From a virus (Duplodnaviria; Heunggongvirae; Uroviricota; Caudoviricetes), in the IMG/VR virus record IMGVR_UViG_2703718832_000007, positions 1-33,242 of that record: a DNA stretch of 33,242 nucleotides. One strand, given 5' to 3'. The notes under the pieces are model-generated. The model was not told where the DNA came from and did no database searches. It saw only the letters and a program-made list of their open reading frames with translations. A program made the position numbers and the translations under genes. Shown one piece after another: positions 1,659 through 24,804 of this stretch (positions are counted from its first letter, which is position 1; each line of letters begins with the position of its first letter).

Positions 1659-1862
1659 TTATTGATCGGTGCAGCTGATCAACATGCAAGCGGAAATAAA
1701 TTACGCATTTCTTCTGGTACGCGCTGCTTCTAGCTTGTATGCGACTGATTGCATTTGGTAAACATGCCAATAGCAAATCACATAAGCTGGTTTGCTTTGG
1801 TGACATATCAGCGCTCAGGTGCTAGATTTCCCTCAACATTTACTCATTATCCTGAATTCATT

Positions 1863-2873
1863 ATGGATGTTTCAAAAAAACCGCAACGCGTTTACTGGGT
1901 TGACTCGCTACGTTTCATAGCTATTTTCCTTGTCTACATTGGTCATCTTGGACCAAGTGCAGGCAGGATATACAGCTTTGTTTACCTGTTTCATGTACCG
2001 CTTTTCTTTTTTATATCCGGGATGTTCTACAAATCTGGAGGCGGCATCGCGGATAATGTGAAGTCATCATTTAAAAAATTGATGATTCCTTATTTTGTGT
2101 ACTCACTTGCATCACTTATCGTCTACACGCTTTTCCTTCAGAAAGACATAGTGAGCGTGCAGCAGTACGTAATTCAGTTACTGGAAGCAAAGAGAAACTT
2201 TACTGAGTATGCAGTCCAAATGTGGTTTTTGCCGTGCATGTTCCTGATAATGATTTTTTTCCACGCCATGAAATCACTCATAAAAAGTGACATCATTGTA
2301 TTTGCTTTATGTATTGTAATGATGTCTTTGAGTGTTTATGTTCCTGACGTTCCGTCTTCAGTCGTGCCAAAGTTGCCATACTCTTTAGATAGCGCTTTCT
2401 TTTATATATCGTGGTATGCCATAGGGTATTATTGCAGAGGATGGTTTATATCTTTCTTTAGCCGTGCTGGATCTGTTCAGGTTGTTATGCACGTGCTTGC
2501 AATGGCTTTTGCTGTCATGTGCTTCTTCGGCCTGCATCACGACCCTGAGAACTATATAACATTGATAGTCGGCGGTAAGACTTACGTAATACTGTGGATG
2601 ATTCCTACTTTCCTGCTTTTCATTTCATTGATACCAATAGCAAAAATTTTAAGCGAGTATCAGCCGGTTCTTTACATGGGTAGAAACACCCTGCTGCTGT
2701 GCTGTATTGAAAGCATAGCTAAGATATCATTCATATCATTAATAGGTATTAGTGGGCATAGCCTTAACATTGGGGATGAGTATTACTCCTTCGTGTACAT
2801 ATCGGTCCTCATGTTGCTTATTTATGTGGCTAAAACAAAGCTTGATGAGTGGAAAAACAAAACCCCGGTTTGA
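1863..2873 (+). CDS. oac: O-antigen acetyltransferase, acyltransferase-3 family integral membrane protein (serotype-conversion, Oac-like)
   Basis: Multi-pass hydrophobic protein; N-terminal YWVDSLRFIAIFLVYIGH matches the acyltransferase-3 signature; AT-rich gene. The ORF track starts at a TTG at 1749; the ATG at 1863 (MDVSKKPQRVYWVD, 336 aa) is the more plausible start and is close to the length I recall for Sf6 Oac. Confidence 0.8.
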   Translation: MDVSKKPQRVYWVDSLRFIAIFLVYIGHLGPSAGRIYSFVYLFHVPLFFFISGMFYKSGGGIADNVKSSFKKLMIPYFVYSLASLIVYTLFLQKDIVSVQQYVIQLLEAKRNFTEYAVQMWFLPCMFLIMIFFHAMKSLIKSDIIVFALCIVMMSLSVYVPDVPSSVVPKLPYSLDSAFFYISWYAIGYYCRGWFISFFSRAGSVQVVMHVLAMAFAVMCFFGLHHDPENYITLIVGGKTYVILWMIPTFLLFISLIPIAKILSEYQPVLYMGRNTLLLCCIESIAKISFISLIGISGHSLNIGDEYYSFVYISVLMLLIYVAKTKLDEWKNKTPV

Positions 2874-2891: not shown

Positions 2892-4895
2892 CTACTTATC
2901 TGATGGTATGAACATACCGGCGCTATTGTCATGCAGACCAACGTAGCCAATGTTTGTACCGGCAGAGCAATAAACATTTATCGTCATTCCAGTAATCTCT
3001 GATTTTTTCGGTAGATCTCCACTAAATATTTCATTCAATGATATTATTTTAACATCCCATTCATCACCAAAGTTTTGTTGAGGGATTTCTAAGAATGTAT
3101 TTCCTGAAGAGGTTGATATGACAATAACTGTCCTGTTATAACCATCATATTCAGTGGATGCAATATTTATCGTGTGCCCCCCTCTACCAACAAAAACCAA
3201 GCTGCAATGTACAATTCCATGTTCAAACCTTTGGTGTATGGAAGACTGTTGAAGGTTAGTTCCGGGATATGAATTTGTCACTGCATAGTAGTCACTACCA
3301 GCATACCCACCACTCTCTTTAACCACTGCACCAGTCCATCCATCAGGGGTAGAACCTGACCAAGAATTAAACTTTGGATTCCTGATAATTGAGTATGGTG
3401 AGTACATCAGACACTGGTTGAAGGTTAACTTACCAGACGCTCTCACACCACCAAGGTCATCTTCTTTATAATATTGTTGTGCAATATCAATTTCCCAAGA
3501 ACATGAAGCACCAGCTTGATTTATAAATCCTGTATCAGTATTCCACTGTTTCGCGTTACTAAGTTGTTTTACAAAATATTTCGCTCTATTATTAAAACCT
3601 GTAGCTAAACCATGTATTCTAAGAGCATAGGAAGAATTAAGTGTATCAAAGTAACCTTTTACTATGCATCCGCGCGTTAAACCTGATTCAAAGCAGACGA
3701 CTGCATCACCAGCACCAGTTCCTCCAGAAGAAATGGCGAAGTTGTTTTCAAAATATCCATCAATTTCTATTCTATCTGAATAACCGAAAACAGATATAGC
3801 CCTGCCTTTATTCCCTTCAAATATACCATTGATGTGCATATCAAACTGGTTATTTATCGCCATTCCATCCCCACCAGTACATGCTGTTATTTTATTTACG
3901 CCATGCATGTATAGAGTGGTCCCTCTAGCAAGATAACTATCAGACCCGTTCAGGTATACCCCGGAAGTACCCCTAGCTAAAAGACTGTCTGTGTTATACC
4001 ACTCTGCATAACCAACTCCGAAGCTAAAGAAGTTATATGTTTGCCCGTTACGCAATTCGACATTTCGAATTTTATTGCGATAGCTTAAACCTCCTAACGC
4101 TATTGCAGCTGCTGGTATTTCAGGATTTGTTGTTGACTCCCACCTTACTAAACCTTTTGTGTAAGCAGGACCATCAGGAAGCATACTTTCTAGGGAAAGG
4201 TTTTCCAGAACACAATCCCATCCCATTGTAATTAGATCAACATCATTATCGTAAAGCCGGAGCTTTGTGAAGTATTTTCCGGCTCCACTTATAGAGGTGC
4301 CATCACGAGGAGTCAATCCATCTGTGATTTTATATTCACCCTCAGGAACAAACACCTGATATGATGCTGCAAGAGCGTTTTTAAAAGCATTTGTGTCATC
4401 AGTAACCCCATCACCTTTAGCGCCAAAATCCTTAACGCTAATCCAGTCTGCGTTTTTGTCATGCTGCGTGCGGCCTACTGAGTTAGTGCGAGGCTGCTTA
4501 ACCCCAACCAGTGCATCACCCATACCGTCTGCGTAGCTAGCGAGCTCCTGCCTGAACTGATCAGGGTCATACTTCAGCACATTAGGAAAATAAAACTGCT
4601 GTGCACCATACGCATCATAAACAGACATAGAATGGCCTTGCACAGTAACGAACTTGGCAATCTGTCCGTTATATACCGGATATCCAGCAGCGTTAATGAT
4701 GATTGGTTGCGAAACAGGAACGTGAGAACCGTCTTCGTTCTCTACATAAACCTGAATCTGGTTTTCAGGATTTACCGGGTCAGTGTCAATTTTTCCGATA
4801 TAAATTTTGCCATTGGCAACCGCTTTAAAAGAACGCGCCATAGTGAAGAGTTGCGAAGGCATTGATACGATCACATTGGCTGTAATGTCTGTCAT
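2892..4895 (-). CDS. Tailspike protein: P22-type head-binding N-terminal domain fused to a right-handed beta-helix (pectate-lyase-like) receptor-binding/depolymerase domain
   Basis: 667 aa; first ~110 residues ([50 protein letters not shown]...[10 protein letters not shown]) match the P22 gp9 head-binding domain; downstream [16 protein letters not shown] motif and Gly/Asn-rich repeats are typical of beta-helix glycanases; the C-terminal domain is unlike P22 gp9. Confidence 0.9.
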
Positions 4896-7820: not shown

Positions 7821-7889
7821 ATGGTAACAGTCGGTTGGATTATTGTTGCCCTGCTTGTTGCTCTGTGGGCAAAGAATCGTTACTACTGA
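7821..7889 (+). CDS. 22-aa hydrophobic peptide ORF ([22 protein letters not shown])
   Basis: Hand-found; GGAGG RBS 7 nt upstream of ATG; single predicted transmembrane segment; antisense overlap with the 3' end of the gp16-like gene. Confidence 0.35.
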   Translation: MVTVGWIIVALLVALWAKNRYY

Positions 7890-10008
7890 GAAAAGCGACA
7901 ATACCAACGCGGGCTAGATTTTTCTTCTCGTCCGCTGATAGCGTATTTACCCAATCCCTATATGGTTTCACTTTCTGCATTGAAGCATCCACCGATTTCC
8001 TAGAGGCTGGAGTGCTAGCGTGACTTGCGGCAATCCTTTTTGAGAGATTTTTAAAAGCCGGAGATGCTATTAATTCATCAGCGGCAGCCATTCTTGAGTT
8101 TTTACCAGAACGGAGGAGGCTAAAGAGTACCCCTGCCGTACCGGCTCCCGGCGCTCCGATGGCAGTGGTTAGCCCCTCTGCTTTAGCCACGTCTTTTCCT
8201 ATTCCATATATACGCCCAAGCATTCCCTTCTCTCCTGCGAACTGATTCATCATCCGGTCAATTTGAGAGGAGGAATACACCTTCTCGCTGCCCACCCTTT
8301 GCATGCCAGAAGCCACCTCATAGATGTTTCTCAACCTACGCGTAGCCGGATAGCCAATTGCCCGGCTCAATGCCTGCATATTTGATTTGTTTCTTGATAG
8401 ACCTCCATACCACTTAACAAATCCAGGAACACCGAGTGACTGCCCGGGAGATTTAGCGAACGTAGTGAAAGCCCTATTCATTGCGGTGGCAACAGCTGGT
8501 TGCACCATGTCATCAGGAAGATTTGAAACCAGGCGACGGAAGTCACCGCCCTTTCCTTGAGACATGTCGACGATAGCTTGCTGCAATTGCGGCACTATTC
8601 CTTTATCCAGGTCTCTGCCAAGATTTTGAATGGCGGCTGCCTGTACTGCGAATCTCTTTCTCCCGATCTCTCTAGCTAAATTCCATGTATCCTCTGCACC
8701 ATATTTGGCAGCAGCGGCTCCCTGATCTTGTATCAGTGCGCTTTCAAGAATTCCAAGGTGCCGAGCGTCGATGCCGCTATATGGCCCTTTATCCATCTCT
8801 TTGCCAAGAGCCCTTCCAACCTGCCGTCGAACTGCATCAAGAAGACCATAAGTCGGGGCGGTGTTTGGGTCTATTTGTTCCAAGGTCTTTGACAGTTGAG
8901 GATATAGCGATTTTAGTTTTTCTAGCCCACCGACATCATCTGCAATATCCTCAATGGCGTTAGTGGTATGGGAGGTATCTACGGTAGCTCTGGTTGGAAT
9001 TTTTGCTCTAATTTGATTGTATAGAGTGTCTTCTTGGCGCTTCAGGTTTGATCTTAACTCCTCATAAGAGCTTTTTACCTTTTGATTGATAAAGTCCTTA
9101 TCAACGCTCCCACCAAAATCATTAATAAATTTATCTGCCTGCTCTCCAAGCCTACTAATGGCCTCTCGCTGTGCGTGGAACAGTTTATTACCAGGGGTTG
9201 CAGCTAAAGCATTTTCAAACGCGCGGTAAGAAGGGTTGCTGGAGTACATGCCGGGAGTTAAGGCATCCTCTATCCCAAGATTGCGGGCGGCCTGTAGCAC
9301 AGAATCATCTGGTGAAACAGCTTCCGCGAGAGCATTCAAACCAGATCTGTTTCCTGTTATTGGATTCACATCTGTAGCTTTCGTTGCAACCTTCGCCATT
9401 CCACTAAGTTCAGATGCCTGAGACATTTCTGCCGATGGAGGCCTAAACCTCTTCGTAACCGCACTGGCTGCTTTACTAATCACTGGAGATGCCAATTCAG
9501 CAATTGGACCAGCGGCAGCACCTATAGTCGCCCCTGTAGTTACATTGCCACCGGTTCCGTTAGCAACAACACCACCTTCAACCGCACCAAGCCCTGCGGC
9601 GGCAGCCAGCCTTGCCGCCCCTTTCGGAACCTGAGAAATAATCCCACCACCACTAACAAATGGCGCTGCTTGTCCAACGAACTCACCAACATCTTGTGCG
9701 GTTGATGGTTTTGCCGCTAACTTCTGCTGTAGAGACTGAATTGCGGCTTGCTCTTCTGGTGTCATATCCTGAAACAGGCCAACACCTTTACCAACATCCA
9801 TCAATCCACTGAGAACGCCATACATAAAACGGTCGAAACCGTTAGCATTATTAACAACATTTTCCTGTCTGGAATTTTCCTCTGGTGAAACCAAAGGAGA
9901 TTGCTGCTGTTCTGGTTGGGAATCAAGCACAAAGCCATCAGGAAGTTGTGAGTTATCAGGCTGTTCATCCAGAACAAACCCCTCTGGTAAACCTACATTG
10001 GTTGCCAT
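7840..10008 (-). CDS. Ejection (injection) protein, P22 gp16-like
   Basis: 722-aa Ala/Gly/Gln-rich protein occupying the last position in the conserved P22 order gp7-gp20-gp16. Confidence 0.75.
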
Positions 10009-19697: not shown

Positions 19698-21113
19698 TCA
19701 ACCTACACCACAAGGAATTGAGTAACTGGAATAGTCGGGTTGCGCAGCCGACTCCGGGCAATGCATACACATCATCAGCGCATCAGCCAGGTTAGGAGAT
19801 GGAATACCGAGCTTCTGCTTCATTTCTACCTTAGTCATAAGCTCCAGCTTCCCGTTATTATTGAATTTGCGCTGAATCTGCGTCAGTTCTGCAAACAGCT
19901 TCTCCAGCATCTTCTCGCCTATCGCTTCTTTGTCGAAACTCAGCATGTCGTCGGGGTCTGCATACTCACCGTGGACAACCGCCCGATATGTCAGATACAG
20001 CCTGTCAGCTAGCGCGTAATAGAATTGCGCTCGCTTATTGCGGAATACATCGCCAATAGTGCGAACGTTGTCGCCCTGCACGACTTCATCAGCCCATGCT
20101 CCGGCCTGATATGGTGCATCTTCATCAAATGGCGATTCGCTGCCCTTGAACATCGTAGCGGTGATTTTCTTGCCGGAGAACGCTTCCGTTGTCTGTCTGC
20201 GTAGCCCGGCACCAACACCATCACCATCCCACAGGTAATGGTCAGCGCCGTCTTCAATCGCCAGCGAAGTAGCCCAGTCAGCACCCTCGTTGATGTCCAT
20301 CAGCAGGCCTTCGGCAATGCGCTTAACAACCGAACCGTGACGCGATGCGTAACCTTTAGCATCTGGCCCTGTATCTGATGGGTCATGCGCAGAAACAACC
20401 GCACCTTTCGCTTTCCACCCGAGTTTCGTGTGCGCATCGGTTGCAGCTTCAAGCCATTCACGTTTGATGATTGCCATATCACTTGCGCTCACTGGCTCAC
20501 CAAGCCAGATGTGACGATACAGTGTCGGATTTCTGCGTTTACACTCTTCCATCTCCAGACGGAGAACTTCAGGAAAGTGCGGGTTGTCGGTGTAGTTCAC
20601 CGTCAGCAGGCAAATATCATCAGGAGGATTTACGACGAACCGCTGATAGGTATCGTCGAGTATGTTCTTCGGGTTGAAGCTCACCCATATTTCGGAAAAT
20701 GGCTTGCGGATGGTTGGTATCAGGATATCCCATGATTCCTTCGTTACCGCTTCCGCTTCCTCCACCCAGCAGATATCAATACCTTCGAGCGATTTAATCT
20801 TCGTCGGGTTGTTTTTGATGCCGTAGAACATGAATTCAGCGTTCGTTCCGAGATGACGAATCATTGAACGCTGAATTTCAAACTCAGCCGAATACCCTTC
20901 CCGCTCTATGGTGTCTTCAAGCAACCGAATTACCGAATCGCTGATACTGTTTTGCAGCTCACGAGCGCAAAGTATGCGCACAGGCTGCCGACGCGCCGCT
21001 TCAACAAGCAGCCTAGCAATTGCCCATGACTTACCGCTACCTCGACCGCCTTTGGCGACTTTGTAGCGATGCGCCTCAATGAACGGTTCAAAGATAGGAT
21101 TAATCGAGGTCAT
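19698..21113 (-). CDS. Terminase large subunit
   Basis: 471 aa; Walker A KGGRGSGKS near the N-terminus; sequence essentially matches Sf6 gp2 as I recall it. Confidence 0.9.
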   Translation of the reverse strand: MTSINPIFEPFIEAHRYKVAKGGRGSGKSWAIARLLVEAARRQPVRILCARELQNSISDSVIRLLEDTIEREGYSAEFEIQRSMIRHLGTNAEFMFYGIKNNPTKIKSLEGIDICWVEEAEAVTKESWDILIPTIRKPFSEIWVSFNPKNILDDTYQRFVVNPPDDICLLTVNYTDNPHFPEVLRLEMEECKRRNPTLYRHIWLGEPVSASDMAIIKREWLEAATDAHTKLGWKAKGAVVSAHDPSDTGPDAKGYASRHGSVVKRIAEGLLMDINEGADWATSLAIEDGADHYLWDGDGVGAGLRRQTTEAFSGKKITATMFKGSESPFDEDAPYQAGAWADEVVQGDNVRTIGDVFRNKRAQFYYALADRLYLTYRAVVHGEYADPDDMLSFDKEAIGEKMLEKLFAELTQIQRKFNNNGKLELMTKVEMKQKLGIPSPNLADALMMCMHCPESAAQPDYSSYSIPCGVG

Positions 21114-21535
21114 TTTCCGAATAGAGTGCTCATCGGTGATGTTTCAATCTGGATTGCGCCGCCGTCTTTGCCGACAAGCTCGTTAGTTACCTTGTCGCCA
21201 TACTTACGGGGATTCATTCGGGCCAGCGCCCATTTGCGGGTATCAACGCGAAGTCTTGCCTTTGCCACCTCAGCAGCATCTGGAATCGCAGTGTCAGCAA
21301 TTTCGAATATCTCTTCGAAAATAGAATCAGCTCGCGCCTCAGCTGCCTTCGCGTACTTGTCTCTAAAGTCGTCATGCTCTGACAGCCAGCGAAATACAGT
21401 AGCCTTTGCTGGCATGCCGGGGCGCTTGCAAACCTTAACCAGACTTTCCCCGGAGGCAAGCAGCGCACAGATATCATCAGCCACCTCCGGCAGGTAATCC
21501 GAAGGGCGACCGACATTCTTTTTCTCAGTCGCCAT
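21110..21535 (-). CDS. Terminase small subunit
   Basis: 141 aa; near-identical to my recollection of Sf6 gp1 (MATE..GRPSDY.PEVADDIC...SPMSTLFGK). Confidence 0.9.
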   Translation of the reverse strand: MATEKKNVGRPSDYLPEVADDICALLASGESLVKVCKRPGMPAKATVFRWLSEHDDFRDKYAKAAEARADSIFEEIFEIADTAIPDAAEVAKARLRVDTRKWALARMNPRKYGDKVTNELVGKDGGAIQIETSPMSTLFGK

Positions 21536-21540
21536 ATTGA

Positions 21541-22029
21541 TTATTTCCCTTCTGTTTGCTTCCCAGCGGGGAACGAATCAACGCTGCCGCCGGAATAGCA
21601 GTCAAGATCAATTGCGACTTGTACCGCTTCTCTCGCATTTTTGCCGCAGTGCATGGCTGTGCGAGCAATCAGCCAACCACTACCAATGGCATACGGTTCA
21701 ACCTGTCGCGAAATACTCGCCCGCGTTTCGCCTTTCTCTTTTGAGATGATGTAAGCACGACCAGCACCGATGATAGCAAGCGCGGTGAAAGAGAATGTCG
21801 GGAGAAATTCTGATGCATACGTCAGGTTGTTCTTAAGCAGTTCCTGCAATTCCATCTCCGCGCCGCAATCACCAGAACAACCTAATGCAACCACTTTACT
21901 GCCGCAAACCTCCCACCCAGATTCTGGCGGTGTGTAAATCTTTTGTTCTGTATACGAACACACAACATCACCAGATGATGCCTGGGTGTCAGATGCCAGG
22001 GTCTTTCCATCCCATGCAATAGTGGTCAT
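21541..22029 (-). CDS. HslV / proteasome beta-subunit-like Ntn-hydrolase (putative threonine peptidase), moron
   Basis: 162 aa; N-terminus MTTIAWDGKTLASDTQ resembles the HslV/20S-beta start (Thr nucleophile at position 2, Asp in the first strand) and AIGSGW matches the HslV AIGSGG motif. Confidence 0.55.
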   Translation of the reverse strand: MTTIAWDGKTLASDTQASSGDVVCSYTEQKIYTPPESGWEVCGSKVVALGCSGDCGAEMELQELLKNNLTYASEFLPTFSFTALAIIGAGRAYIISKEKGETRASISRQVEPYAIGSGWLIARTAMHCGKNAREAVQVAIDLDCYSGGSVDSFPAGKQTEGK

Positions 22030-22030
22030 A

Positions 22031-22273
22031 TCATGCTCCGGTGGTGAACAGGTCTAACGCTTCCTTCGATTTACGCACCGCTTCGATAGTTCGGGTCGTG
22101 ATATCTGAATTAGCGCCGCCTGACTGGAAGTGAATTTTGAATAGCTCAAGCTTCAGCTCGTCAGTGCCAATGAATTGAAATGCTTCCTCTGCGGCTGCGT
22201 TCTGGTTCATGACCAGTTTGTAAATCTCTAACTGGAATTTCTGTTCTTCAGTCATGGGAATAATCTCTGCCAT
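22031..22273 (-). CDS. Hypothetical helical protein, tightly coupled upstream partner of the HslV-like gene
   Basis: 80 aa with a GGAG RBS; its TGA stop is separated from the HslV-like ATG by 1 nt. Confidence 0.5.
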   Translation of the reverse strand: MAEIIPMTEEQKFQLEIYKLVMNQNAAAEEAFQFIGTDELKLELFKIHFQSGGANSDITTRTIEAVRKSKEALDLFTTGA

Positions 22274-22720
22274 TGTTGGCTCCGTTTATCCGTTAAAAGG
22301 GATATCAGTTAAGTTATCCCGTGCAGGGTATAAGCCATTGTCGAGACCACTCATTGAATGGTCTCTGCAATAACCGATGTCTTTCCATCAGTCCGCCACC
22401 ACAAAGAATCTTTTTTGCCATAAGGCAGGAGGTTCATCTTTCAGTGGCTGCCAGTGTTATTTCCCCATTTTCTGGCTTGGGTTGTTTCGCTGTACTGCCG
22501 TAACTGGTTACCCAGAATAAATTCCGGTTTCATTATCAAGCCCACCCGTAGATAGGCTTTGTAATGAACTGGCTCTTATCTCAACGCAGCCCCTTACCGC
22601 GCGCCAGATGCTCAATATCAAGCATCAGCAATGAGATGTTTAATCTGGATTCACTCCAGAAGTGATCACCACCCTGTCTACAGAGCCAGATGTGAAGGAT
22701 GATGAGTAAAATTATCGCTA

Positions 22721-23188
22721 TCATCGAAGGCATTGCGTCCTGATGTACTCCTGAAGCGTTCTCAGTGCTGTTTGGTCGCGGATAATTCCGTCCCGGATAC
22801 CGAGAACGTTTCGTCCAGCAACTGGAGAGAGTTCGACGGTGGCATCATTGCCCATGCCGGAGGAGCCGGAGGTTTCGGCTGAGGATGGCTCAGGGCATTT
22901 TCCTTTGACGAGCACCCTGCCACCATTATCAAGCTTGCGCCGAAGAGCATCATTTTCAGCTTTCGCATCAGCTAACTCCTTCGTGTATTTGGCATCCAGT
23001 GCAGCGACATCACGCTGGCGGGTCTGCATATCTTTGATGGTGGCATTAGCCAGGCGGAGGTTCTTTGTGGCTTTATCGCGCTGGTCTTTGTAGGCGATGG
23101 CGTTATCACGGTAATGATTAACAGCCCATGACAGGCAAACGATGATGCAGATAACCAGAGCGGAGATAATCGCGGTTACTTTGCTCAT
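22721..23188 (-). CDS. Rz: Spanin inner-membrane subunit Rz
   Basis: 155 aa with N-terminal transmembrane segment and coiled-coil periplasmic domain; follows the endolysin; contains the embedded Rz1 frame. Confidence 0.85.
22762..22968 (-). CDS. Rz1: Spanin outer-membrane lipoprotein subunit Rz1 (embedded in Rz, +1 frame)
   Basis: 68 aa; lipobox LIMVAGCSS; Pro-rich [11 protein letters not shown], similar to lambda Rz1. Confidence 0.8.
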
Positions 23189-23661
23189 ACCTCAATCTCT
23201 CTGACCGTTCCGCCTGCTTCTTTGAATTTTGCAATCAGGCTGTCAGCCTTATGCTCGAACTGACCATAACCAGCGCCAGGCAGTGAAGCCCAGATATTGC
23301 TGCAACGGTCAATTGCCTGACGAATGTCACCGCGATCGATCATGGGTAAAGCACCACGCTCTTTAATCTGTTGCAGTGCCACAGCGTCCTGGCTTTTCGG
23401 AGAGAAGTCTTTCAGGCCAAGCTGCTTACGATAGGCATCCCACCAACGGGAAAGAAGCTGGTAACGTCCGGCTGCTGTTGATTTGAGTTTGGGGTTTAGC
23501 GTGACAAGTTTGCGAGGGTGATCGGAGTAATCAGTGAATAGCTCTCCGCCTACAATGACGTCATAACCATGATTTCTGGTTTTCTGACGTCCGTTATCAG
23601 TTCCCTCTGACCACGCCAGCATATCGAGGAACGCCTTACGTTGATTATTGATTTCCACCAT
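23185..23661 (-). CDS. R: Endolysin R (lytic transglycosylase), lambda-type
   Basis: 158 aa; essentially identical to lambda R over its length ([51 protein letters not shown]...). Confidence 0.95.
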
Positions 23662-23968
23662 CTTCTACTCCGGCTTTTTTAGCAGCGAAGCGTTTGATAA
23701 GCGAACCAATCGAGTCAGTACCGATGTAGCCGATGAACACGCTCGTTATATAAGCGAGATTGCTACTTAGTCCGGCGAAGTCGAGAAGGTCACGAATGAA
23801 CCAGGCGATAATGGCGCACATCGTTGCGTCGATTACTGTTTTTGTAAACGCACCGCCATTATACCTGCCGCGAAGGTACGCCATTGCAAACGCAAGGATT
23901 GCCCCGATGCCTTGTTCCTTTGCCGCAAGAATGGCGGCTAACAGGTCATGTTTTTCTGGCATCTTCAT
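23645..23968 (-). CDS. S: Holin S (class I, dual-start S107/S105), lambda-type
   Basis: 107 aa; matches lambda S including the Met1-Lys2-Met3 dual-start motif ([39 protein letters not shown]...). Confidence 0.95.
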
Positions 23969-24294
23969 GTCTTACCCCCAATAAGGGGATTTGCTCTATT
24001 TAATTAGGAATAAGGTCGATTACTGATAGAACAAATCCAGGCTACTGTGTTTAGTAATCAGATTTGTTCGTGACCGATATGCACGGGCAAAACGGCATGA
24101 GGTTGTTAGCGCAACCTCCTGCCACCGCTTTCACGAAGGTCATATGTAGAAGGCCGCAGCATAACTATCACTGATGAATTCAGGATAGCCAGTGGCTACG
24201 GCTCAGTTTGGGTTGTGGTGGTTGGTGCTGAACTCCAACTTGAGGCTACCCATCCTAGCCCGAAGCTAGGTGCTCACCTCTGAGCGTTAGCGCA

Positions 24295-24804
24295 TCAGCC
24301 TGCGCATTCACCACAATTCTTGTTGTAACTTCCGAATATTTTTTCCCTTTCCGAAGTCACAAATTTTATAGCATCCTCTTTGCGTTTAAATGTCTTGAAG
24401 GCCGCAGTTTTTCTATTAACAAAAACACGAGCATGCCAAAGCCTATCTCTCGAGTGGAAACAAACACCACGACAACCAGACCGGTTCCTTTTCGAGGTTA
24501 TTGTGTTCATGTTGTTTTGCGATCTGCTAACAAGCCTAAGATTTGATATCCTGTTGTCGTCTCTTATGCCATTCACATGATCTATTTCTAAGCCGCTATT
24601 TATTTCGCCATTGCACAAAATCCACGCCAGACGATGAGCAAAGTATCTTTTACCTCCTAAAGATATTTGCCTGTAACCGAACGAATTCAGCGAACCAGCA
24701 ATCATGCCAGGCTTAGATCTTCCTGTTTTTACCTTCCACACGAAGATGCCGGTAGATGGATTAAATGACAAAGATTCTTTAATGCGTTCACTTGTTAAAA
24801 GCAT
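24295..24804 (-). CDS. HNH homing endonuclease with AP2-type DNA-binding domain
   Basis: 169 aa; HNH core GLEIDHVNGIRDDNRISNLRLVSRSQNNMN; C-terminal AP2-like GCRGVCFHSRDRLWHARVFVNRKTAAFKTFKRKEDAIKF; located inside the late leader between tR' and S. Confidence 0.8.
   Translation of the reverse strand: MLLTSERIKESLSFNPSTGIFVWKVKTGRSKPGMIAGSLNSFGYRQISLGGKRYFAHRLAWILCNGEINSGLEIDHVNGIRDDNRISNLRLVSRSQNNMNTITSKRNRSGCRGVCFHSRDRLWHARVFVNRKTAAFKTFKRKEDAIKFVTSEREKIFGSYNKNCGECAG

Follow-up and report, generated by a model that had tools for sequence, protein, structure and literature searches.

Why should a P22-like prophage carry, between its lysis and DNA-packaging genes, a predicted relative of HslV and of the proteasomal beta subunits? 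This question is raised by a 33,242-nucleotide stretch of viral DNA (IMG/VR record IMGVR_UViG_2703718832_000007, positions 1 to 33,242; the whole stretch is referred to here as the window), which is a P22-like prophage with genes for an integrase, an acyltransferase, a P22-type tailspike, an Ant-like antirepressor, Q, DnaB, O and N. An earlier note, made from the letters of the window, had drawn attention to two open reading frames on its minus strand that are separated by a 1-nucleotide gap. The second of these encodes a 162-residue protein that begins with MTTIAWDGKTLASDTQ and contains the motif AIGSGW (residues 114-119). The two frames are as described there, and so is their placement: the lysis genes (Rz/Rz1, endolysin, holin) lie upstream, and the small terminase gene (terS), terL and the portal gene lie downstream. 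The 162-residue protein belongs to the PPH (phage proteasome homolog) family, which has already been named in the literature and is already annotated as PHROG 1040, and its gene is a rare single-gene cassette in an exchangeable slot of the prophage, between a gene of the Pfam family DUF2560 and terS. The features of the gene itself are as follows.

21541..22029, minus strand: PPH gene, encoding a predicted 162-residue proteasome-beta/HslV-type N-terminal-threonine hydrolase (PPH family, PHROG 1040)
22024..22026, minus strand: codon of Thr2, the predicted nucleophile after removal of Met1; Met1 and Thr2 are invariant in 48 of 48 sequences
21895..21930, minus strand: S3/S4-loop insertion of about 10 residues (residues 34-45) that forms a beta-hairpin, contains a conserved Trp39 and is confined to the clade of 'long' PPH proteins

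Fold and family of the 162-residue protein

The 162-residue protein matches phrog_1040 ('peptidase HslV family') with an E-value of 3e-37. A profile built from 48 diverse relatives matches HslV, BPH and the 20S beta subunits of archaea and eukaryotes at 1e-9 to 1e-5, with the 20S beta and HslV chains at 1e-9 to 1e-8, and its hhalign alignment with E. coli HslV (the sequence used was verified against PDB 1e94) reaches a probability of 96.2% and runs from Met1. Twelve of the 48 relatives match the Pfam family PF00227 (Proteasome) at E≤0.01, and none of them matches any other Pfam family. In NCBIfam, the single 162-residue sequence matches no HslV model and gives only a weak match to an archaeal proteasome beta model (E=0.017). 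The AlphaFold2 model computed from the alignment of the 48 relatives is a confident beta-subunit fold (predicted local distance difference test score, pLDDT, 94.5; predicted template modelling score, pTM, 0.89). Foldseek concurs with the assignment to the proteasome-beta/HslV type, and among the viral structures of BFVD there are 41 structural relatives at E≤1e-3, the best with template modelling scores of 0.87/0.92. From these profiles and the model, the protein is predicted to be an N-terminal nucleophile (Ntn) hydrolase of the HslV/20S-beta-like fold, as the earlier note had proposed; the link to PF00227 is one of superfamily membership, by profile and structure only. No defence family in PADLOC matches either the 162-residue protein or its 80-residue neighbour at E≤1.

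The threonine, aspartate, lysine and GSG loop to which the earlier note had pointed are aligned with catalytic positions in HslV and the beta subunits. The equivalences below were taken from the profile and hhalign alignments, and conservation was counted across the 48 sequences.

Thr2: 48/48, equivalent to Thr1
Asp14: 48/48, equivalent to Asp17
Lys30: 48/48, equivalent to Lys33
Gly50: G or A, equivalent to Gly47 (oxyanion)
Gly116-Ser/Thr117-Gly118: G 48/48, S/T 46/48, G 48/48, equivalent to the Ser129 loop
Asp143: 47/48, equivalent to Asp166
Ser/Thr146: 46/48, equivalent to Ser169

All seven putative active-site equivalents are thus conserved in PPH, including the Asp166/Ser169-type D-x-x-S motif, in place of which E. 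coli HslV has C-I-Y-T. Both the protein and E. coli HslV start with MTTI, and the two stretches align; a propeptide is absent, as all 48 homologs begin with MT. A longer in-frame version of the protein is not possible, since the open reading frame starts at the first start codon past the upstream stop. The established specificity of methionine aminopeptidase predicts the removal of Met1 before Thr2, and by analogy with E. coli HslV the loss of Met1 alone would expose the threonine nucleophile.

The gene is real and under constraint. Comparison with the 91% identical copy of phage Dewey gives a ratio of non-synonymous to synonymous substitution rates (dN/dS) of 0.08 at a dS of 0.66, which indicates strong purifying selection; taken together with the conservation of all catalytic positions, this argues against an inactive scaffold. 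A word-indexed search returned 99 homologs, many of them copies of more than 95% identity from assemblies of E. coli and Salmonella. When 1.84 billion representatives of clusters at 50% identity were scanned exhaustively with phmmer, 1,359 matched PPH at E≤1e-3, 91 of them at E≤1e-10, and most of the 150 best matches listed start at residue 1 of both proteins.

The PPH family was recognised bioinformatically and named in 2021 by Fuchs, Alva and Lupas (PMC8665760). As described there, its members have about 140 residues, occur in tailed phages and prophage contexts of proteobacteria, belong to group I, as do HslV and BPH, and lack both a propeptide and the C-terminal S12/H5; the absence of H2 is unique to PPH and RPC (PMC8665760). 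Membership of the window protein was judged from this description, with phrog_1040 serving as a proxy for the cluster of these authors (representative WP_042125023.1). The proteasome-like beta-sheet core with the triad Thr1/Asp17/Lys33 and the oxyanion Gly47 is present in the alignments and the model. Helix H2 is missing: where HslV has the helix pair H1 and H2, only one helix (57-66) is modelled, placed between strands 48-53 and 81-88, and the H2 segment of HslV is unaligned or gapped in every comparison with PPH. The protein is also compact, with nothing structured past strand 150-154 and without S12/H5, and its context is that of the family, with homologs in 107 phage records and in prophages of E. 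coli, Pantoea, Morganella and Citrobacter. From 20S beta subunits (PF00227) and BPH, PPH differs in having neither a propeptide nor an alpha-ring partner, H2 or the C-terminal helix H5.

The window protein differs from the published description in its length, 162 rather than about 140 residues. This is explained chiefly by the hairpin of about 10 residues in the S3/S4 loop, and further by a longer strand-connecting loop (about residues 98-104) and a disordered tail. The hairpin is modelled by AlphaFold2 with short strands at 40-41 and 44-45. It is found in the enterobacterial prophage clade and in SPN3US gp001, IME346 and S13d, and it is absent from the PPH proteins of 137-151 residues.

The Dewey copy and many homologs from jumbo phages and Klebsiella phages are annotated in GenBank as 'peptidase HslV family'. 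A paper on jumbo phages merely notes HslV-like genes without HslU, and the genome announcement of phages Huey, Dewey and Louie makes no mention of the peptidase. The statement in the earlier note that this is not a characterised phage function therefore holds in so far as no experimental paper was found; the family itself, on the other hand, had already been named (PMC8665760) and catalogued as PHROG 1040.

A single-gene cassette between DUF2560 and terS

The cassette is bounded by the following features.

22031..22273, minus strand: DUF2560 gene, 80 residues, homolog of HK620 hkbM (PF10834, E=1e-43; phrog_571)
22030..22039, minus strand: junction of the DUF2560 and PPH genes, with a GGAG Shine-Dalgarno motif (22039-22036), the TGA stop codon (22033-22031) and a 1-nucleotide spacer (22030); left boundary of the cassette
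21110..21535, minus strand: small terminase gene of the Sf6 type (PF20901, E=3e-44; phrog_1482); right boundary of the cassette

The ATG codon of the PPH gene is at 22029-22027, and the GGAG motif lies 6 nucleotides upstream of it, within the 3' end of the DUF2560 gene; terS begins 5 nucleotides past the PPH stop codon. The upstream 80-residue protein had been regarded as belonging to no recognisable family; it is in fact a clear DUF2560 protein. An AlphaFold2 model computed from its sequence alone consists of four helices and is of low confidence (pLDDT 53.6), and a literature search on DUF2560, orf80 and hkbM returned irrelevant papers only.

With such a tight junction, DUF2560 and PPH might be taken for a dedicated, translationally coupled two-gene module of an adaptor or regulator and its protease, which is in essence what the earlier note had proposed. 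The 1-nucleotide gap and the Shine-Dalgarno motif within the DUF2560 gene speak for this idea, and so does the fact that DUF2560 lies directly upstream in all 10 of the PPH-bearing E. coli genomes. These 10, however, have to be seen against the 5,426 complete E. coli genomes, 899 of which are matched by the combined query; the peptidase gene is thus missing from about 99% of the E. coli genomes with DUF2560, and six of the 10 PPH-bearing genomes are strains of one "0H" series. Among the 351 phage records that match this region of the window, only one contains PPH.

The slot behind DUF2560 is filled in various ways. In a five-way DNA alignment of the window, Kapi1, HK620, the prophage of E. coli MS 115-1 and Dewey, the DUF2560 gene is nearly identical up to its stop codon, and the sequences diverge beyond it. 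In HK620 and Kapi1, the same 1-nucleotide junction leads into an unrelated, GTG-started gene for a 59-residue protein, hkbN, while in Dewey an additional gene for a 95-residue protein intervenes between DUF2560 and PPH. In the MS 115-1 prophage PPH is the same, but the terS behind it is a different one, annotated as 'DNA-packaging protein'. Moreover, between the window and Dewey, DUF2560 has a synonymous divergence of 0.15 and PPH one of 0.66, which indicates separate histories of the two genes.

Prophages of Pantoea, Morganella and Citrobacter carry PPH homologs of 51-60% identity in the interval from the lysis genes to terS, and in two cases no other gene separates PPH from the terS downstream of it. 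DUF2560 is found in none of these prophages, and their terminase, portal and head genes are unrelated to those of the window. In more distant phages, the neighbours of PPH are unrelated small hypothetical genes, tRNAs, tail genes and holins, and DUF2560 accompanies none of the phage homologs examined. No conserved partner or AAA+ gene was found beside PPH in SPN3US, IME346, S13d, Ivi or the Pantoea, Morganella and Citrobacter prophages. Prevalence, slot contents, divergence and these other contexts together argue that what is conserved in lambdoid prophages is the slot and not the partner. The two-gene module is thereby largely refuted, and we regard it as very improbable; DUF2560 is a conserved resident neighbour of P22-like phages rather than a dedicated partner of PPH.

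The same distribution bears on the idea that PPH serves morphogenesis or maturation, as a protease with virion or scaffolding proteins as its substrates. No prohead protease takes part in the assembly of P22-type capsids. The gene does adjoin packaging and head genes, is probably expressed late, and in several prophage types lies directly upstream of terS; it is nevertheless missing from nearly all P22-like phages that share the structural module, including about 99% of the DUF2560-bearing E. coli genomes and all but one of the 351 phage records, and PPH proteins are spread over podo-, sipho-, myo- and jumbo phages whose head genes are unrelated and in which the gene takes up unrelated positions. 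A morphogenetic role is hardly credible on this record, in agreement with the earlier view that morphogenesis does not explain the gene.

PPH sits in the same variable interval as the exchangeable genes found between Rz and terS in P22-like and lambdoid phages (for example, hkbK/L/M/N of HK620). In other P22-like phages this interval contains KilA-N/Rha genes, HNH endonucleases, genes annotated as anti-CRISPR, or hkbN. The cargo in the window differs from these accessory genes in that it is a peptidase.

Several observations on relatives of the cassette deserve mention. The hkbN gene, at positions 957-1136 of both the HK620 locus (L002) and the Kapi1 locus (L003, Kapi1_045), is a natural 'allele' for comparison with PPH. 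The MS 115-1 prophage (chromosomal positions 3214867-3255599, L004) is P22-like, adjoins bioA/ybhB and carries a DUF2560-PPH pair that is 99% identical to that of the window. An HNH endonuclease splits its 'packaged DNA stabilization protein' gene, and the mosaicism of its late region is clear. In phage Huey (L009, 382-1497), the interval from Rz to DUF2560 contains two genes annotated as 'anti-CRISPR protein'; this annotation looks automated, and it hints that the late-region interval collects host-interaction genes. Finally, in three assemblies of the E. coli 0H strain series, the same PPH-bearing phage is present both in the chromosome and as a separate record of phage size (NZ_CP081786.1/NZ_CP081778.1, 39,448 bp; NZ_CP081694.1, 29,741 bp), which suggests that it excises spontaneously or replicates in culture.

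Proposed activity and its alternatives

We estimate the probability at roughly 60% that the gene encodes an active PPH peptidase that functions without HslU, is a product of the late operon and has a dispensable, niche-specific role. Its transcription would occur together with the late lysis-packaging operon, and its ribosome-binding site would be the GGAG motif inside the 3' end of the DUF2560 gene, with the start codon 1 nucleotide past the DUF2560 stop codon. The methionine aminopeptidase of the host would then remove Met1 and expose the threonine nucleophile, as it does in E. coli HslV. The mature protein, probably in homo-oligomeric form, would be active as a threonine peptidase with no need of HslU and would cleave a specific host or phage polypeptide late in infection, and the benefit that it confers would be dispensable and specific to certain niches.

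The proposed transcription with neighbouring genes bears on the earlier classification of the locus as a moron. In a consensus scan of the coding (minus) strand from the holin gene to terS (21000-24200), no sigma-70-like promoter was detected, and only weak intragenic hairpins scored as terminators. No promoter-like site was found upstream of PPH at the Pantoea and Citrobacter loci either. The G+C content of the PPH gene (about 0.50) is like that of its flanks, and its composition is unremarkable. The gene is not, then, a classical moron, that is, an autonomous transcription unit with its own promoter and terminator; the lack of such signals and the tight gene spacing suggest that it is transcribed with the Q-dependent late operon.

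Several points weigh against the reading as an active, HslU-independent late peptidase. No experimental study of any PPH protein was found in the literature, and all statements on activity, oligomeric state, substrate and timing are inferences. The family assignment rests on profiles, PHROGs and a predicted structure and not on single-sequence matches: the 162-residue query by itself has no Pfam match at E≤1 and does not reach the gathering threshold of PF00227, and a single-query search of the PDB gave no significant chain. The scans for promoters and terminators relied on crude matching to consensus sequences. Ligase or amidase chemistry is likewise supported by Ntn folds. Furthermore, the loss of H2 does not prove independence from HslU, as it is compatible with the binding of HslU or of another host factor.

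The last of these points leads to the possibility that PPH hijacks the HslU protein of the host, replacing HslV or mixing with it on the unfoldase ring and thereby redirecting ATP-dependent degradation to new substrates. The pocket of HslV that receives the C-tail of HslU involves Ala79 and Lys80 together with Phe54, Phe57 and Gln114 (PMC6429459). The HslV segment equivalent to the missing H2 (approximately residues 70-93) includes Ala79 and Lys80, and H2 is absent in all PPH proteins; it is this absence of part of the docking pocket that suggests independence from HslU. The identity between PPH and HslV is only about 24%, no hslU-like gene accompanies PPH in the contexts examined, and the earlier note was right that the locus of the window has no HslU partner nearby. 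We consider the hijacking of HslU unlikely for these reasons.

The S3/S4 hairpin invites a different comparison, since connectase carries a specificity-conferring lid at the same site (PMC8665760). PPH might be no general protease at all but a sequence-specific transpeptidase or ligase like connectase, or else an amidohydrolase that acts on a small non-protein substrate; such chemistry lies within the range of Ntn folds, and we nevertheless give this explanation little credence.

Within the preferred reading of PPH as an active peptidase, the rarity of the gene and the character of the interval in which it resides would fit an accessory role or one in host interaction or counter-defence. A more pointed version, which strikes us as possible if doubtful, is that PPH is a self-sufficient viral threonine peptidase that would require no unfoldase and would cleave one specific host target, either late in infection or in the next cell, with the S3/S4 hairpin as its specificity element. 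The target of such an enzyme could be an effector of immunity, or else a factor in the timing of lysis or in proteostasis.

Neighbouring genes and significance of the PPH cassette

Other genes of the window merit brief comment. A 50-residue open reading frame at 22581-22733 (minus strand) overlaps the 3' end of Rz. It shares 89% identity over 35 residues with Kapi1_042, for which a signal peptide is annotated, and seems to represent a small gene that is conserved immediately downstream of the spanin genes. In what remains of the stretch of about 300 nucleotides before DUF2560 (22274-22580), no open reading frame exceeds 37 residues. A homing-type endonuclease of the HNH_3 family (169 residues, E=4e-19) is encoded at 24295-24804 (minus strand), between the Q antiterminator gene and the holin gene; in the late regions of sister phages, HNH genes lie elsewhere, for example between Rz and DUF2560 in Dewey and within the head genes in the MS 115-1 prophage. 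A 374-residue acyltransferase of the Acyl_transf_3 family (PF01757, E=6e-21) is encoded at 1749-2873 (plus strand), flanked by the integrase (1-1158) and the tailspike of the P22 type (2892-4895), the position at which P22-like and Sf6-like phages carry O-antigen-modifying (serotype-converting) genes. In the ejection-protein region, a 722-residue open reading frame (7840-10008, minus strand) has no Pfam match at E≤1e-5; at the same place, the MS 115-1 prophage encodes a 665-residue 'hypothetical protein' adjoining an annotated phage DNA ejection protein gene.

As a rare, dispensable accessory gene of an already named family, the PPH gene of the window does not represent a new kind of system. 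The family to which it belongs, known since 2021 from bioinformatics only, is large, with 1,359 matching clusters at 50% identity, and the copy in the window sits in the genetically tractable background of a P22-like E. coli phage. Phage Dewey, with its 91% identical PPH, infects K-12 via the O16-type O-antigen (PMC12243541), and HK620 and Kapi1, which carry a different gene in the same slot, are natural isogenic-like comparators. This combination of a tractable background, the Dewey copy and suitable comparators makes the role of a viral proteasome homolog directly testable. If PPH does cleave one host target, it would be the first functionally defined viral proteasome homolog and would represent a new class of phage enzyme for counter-defence or host takeover.
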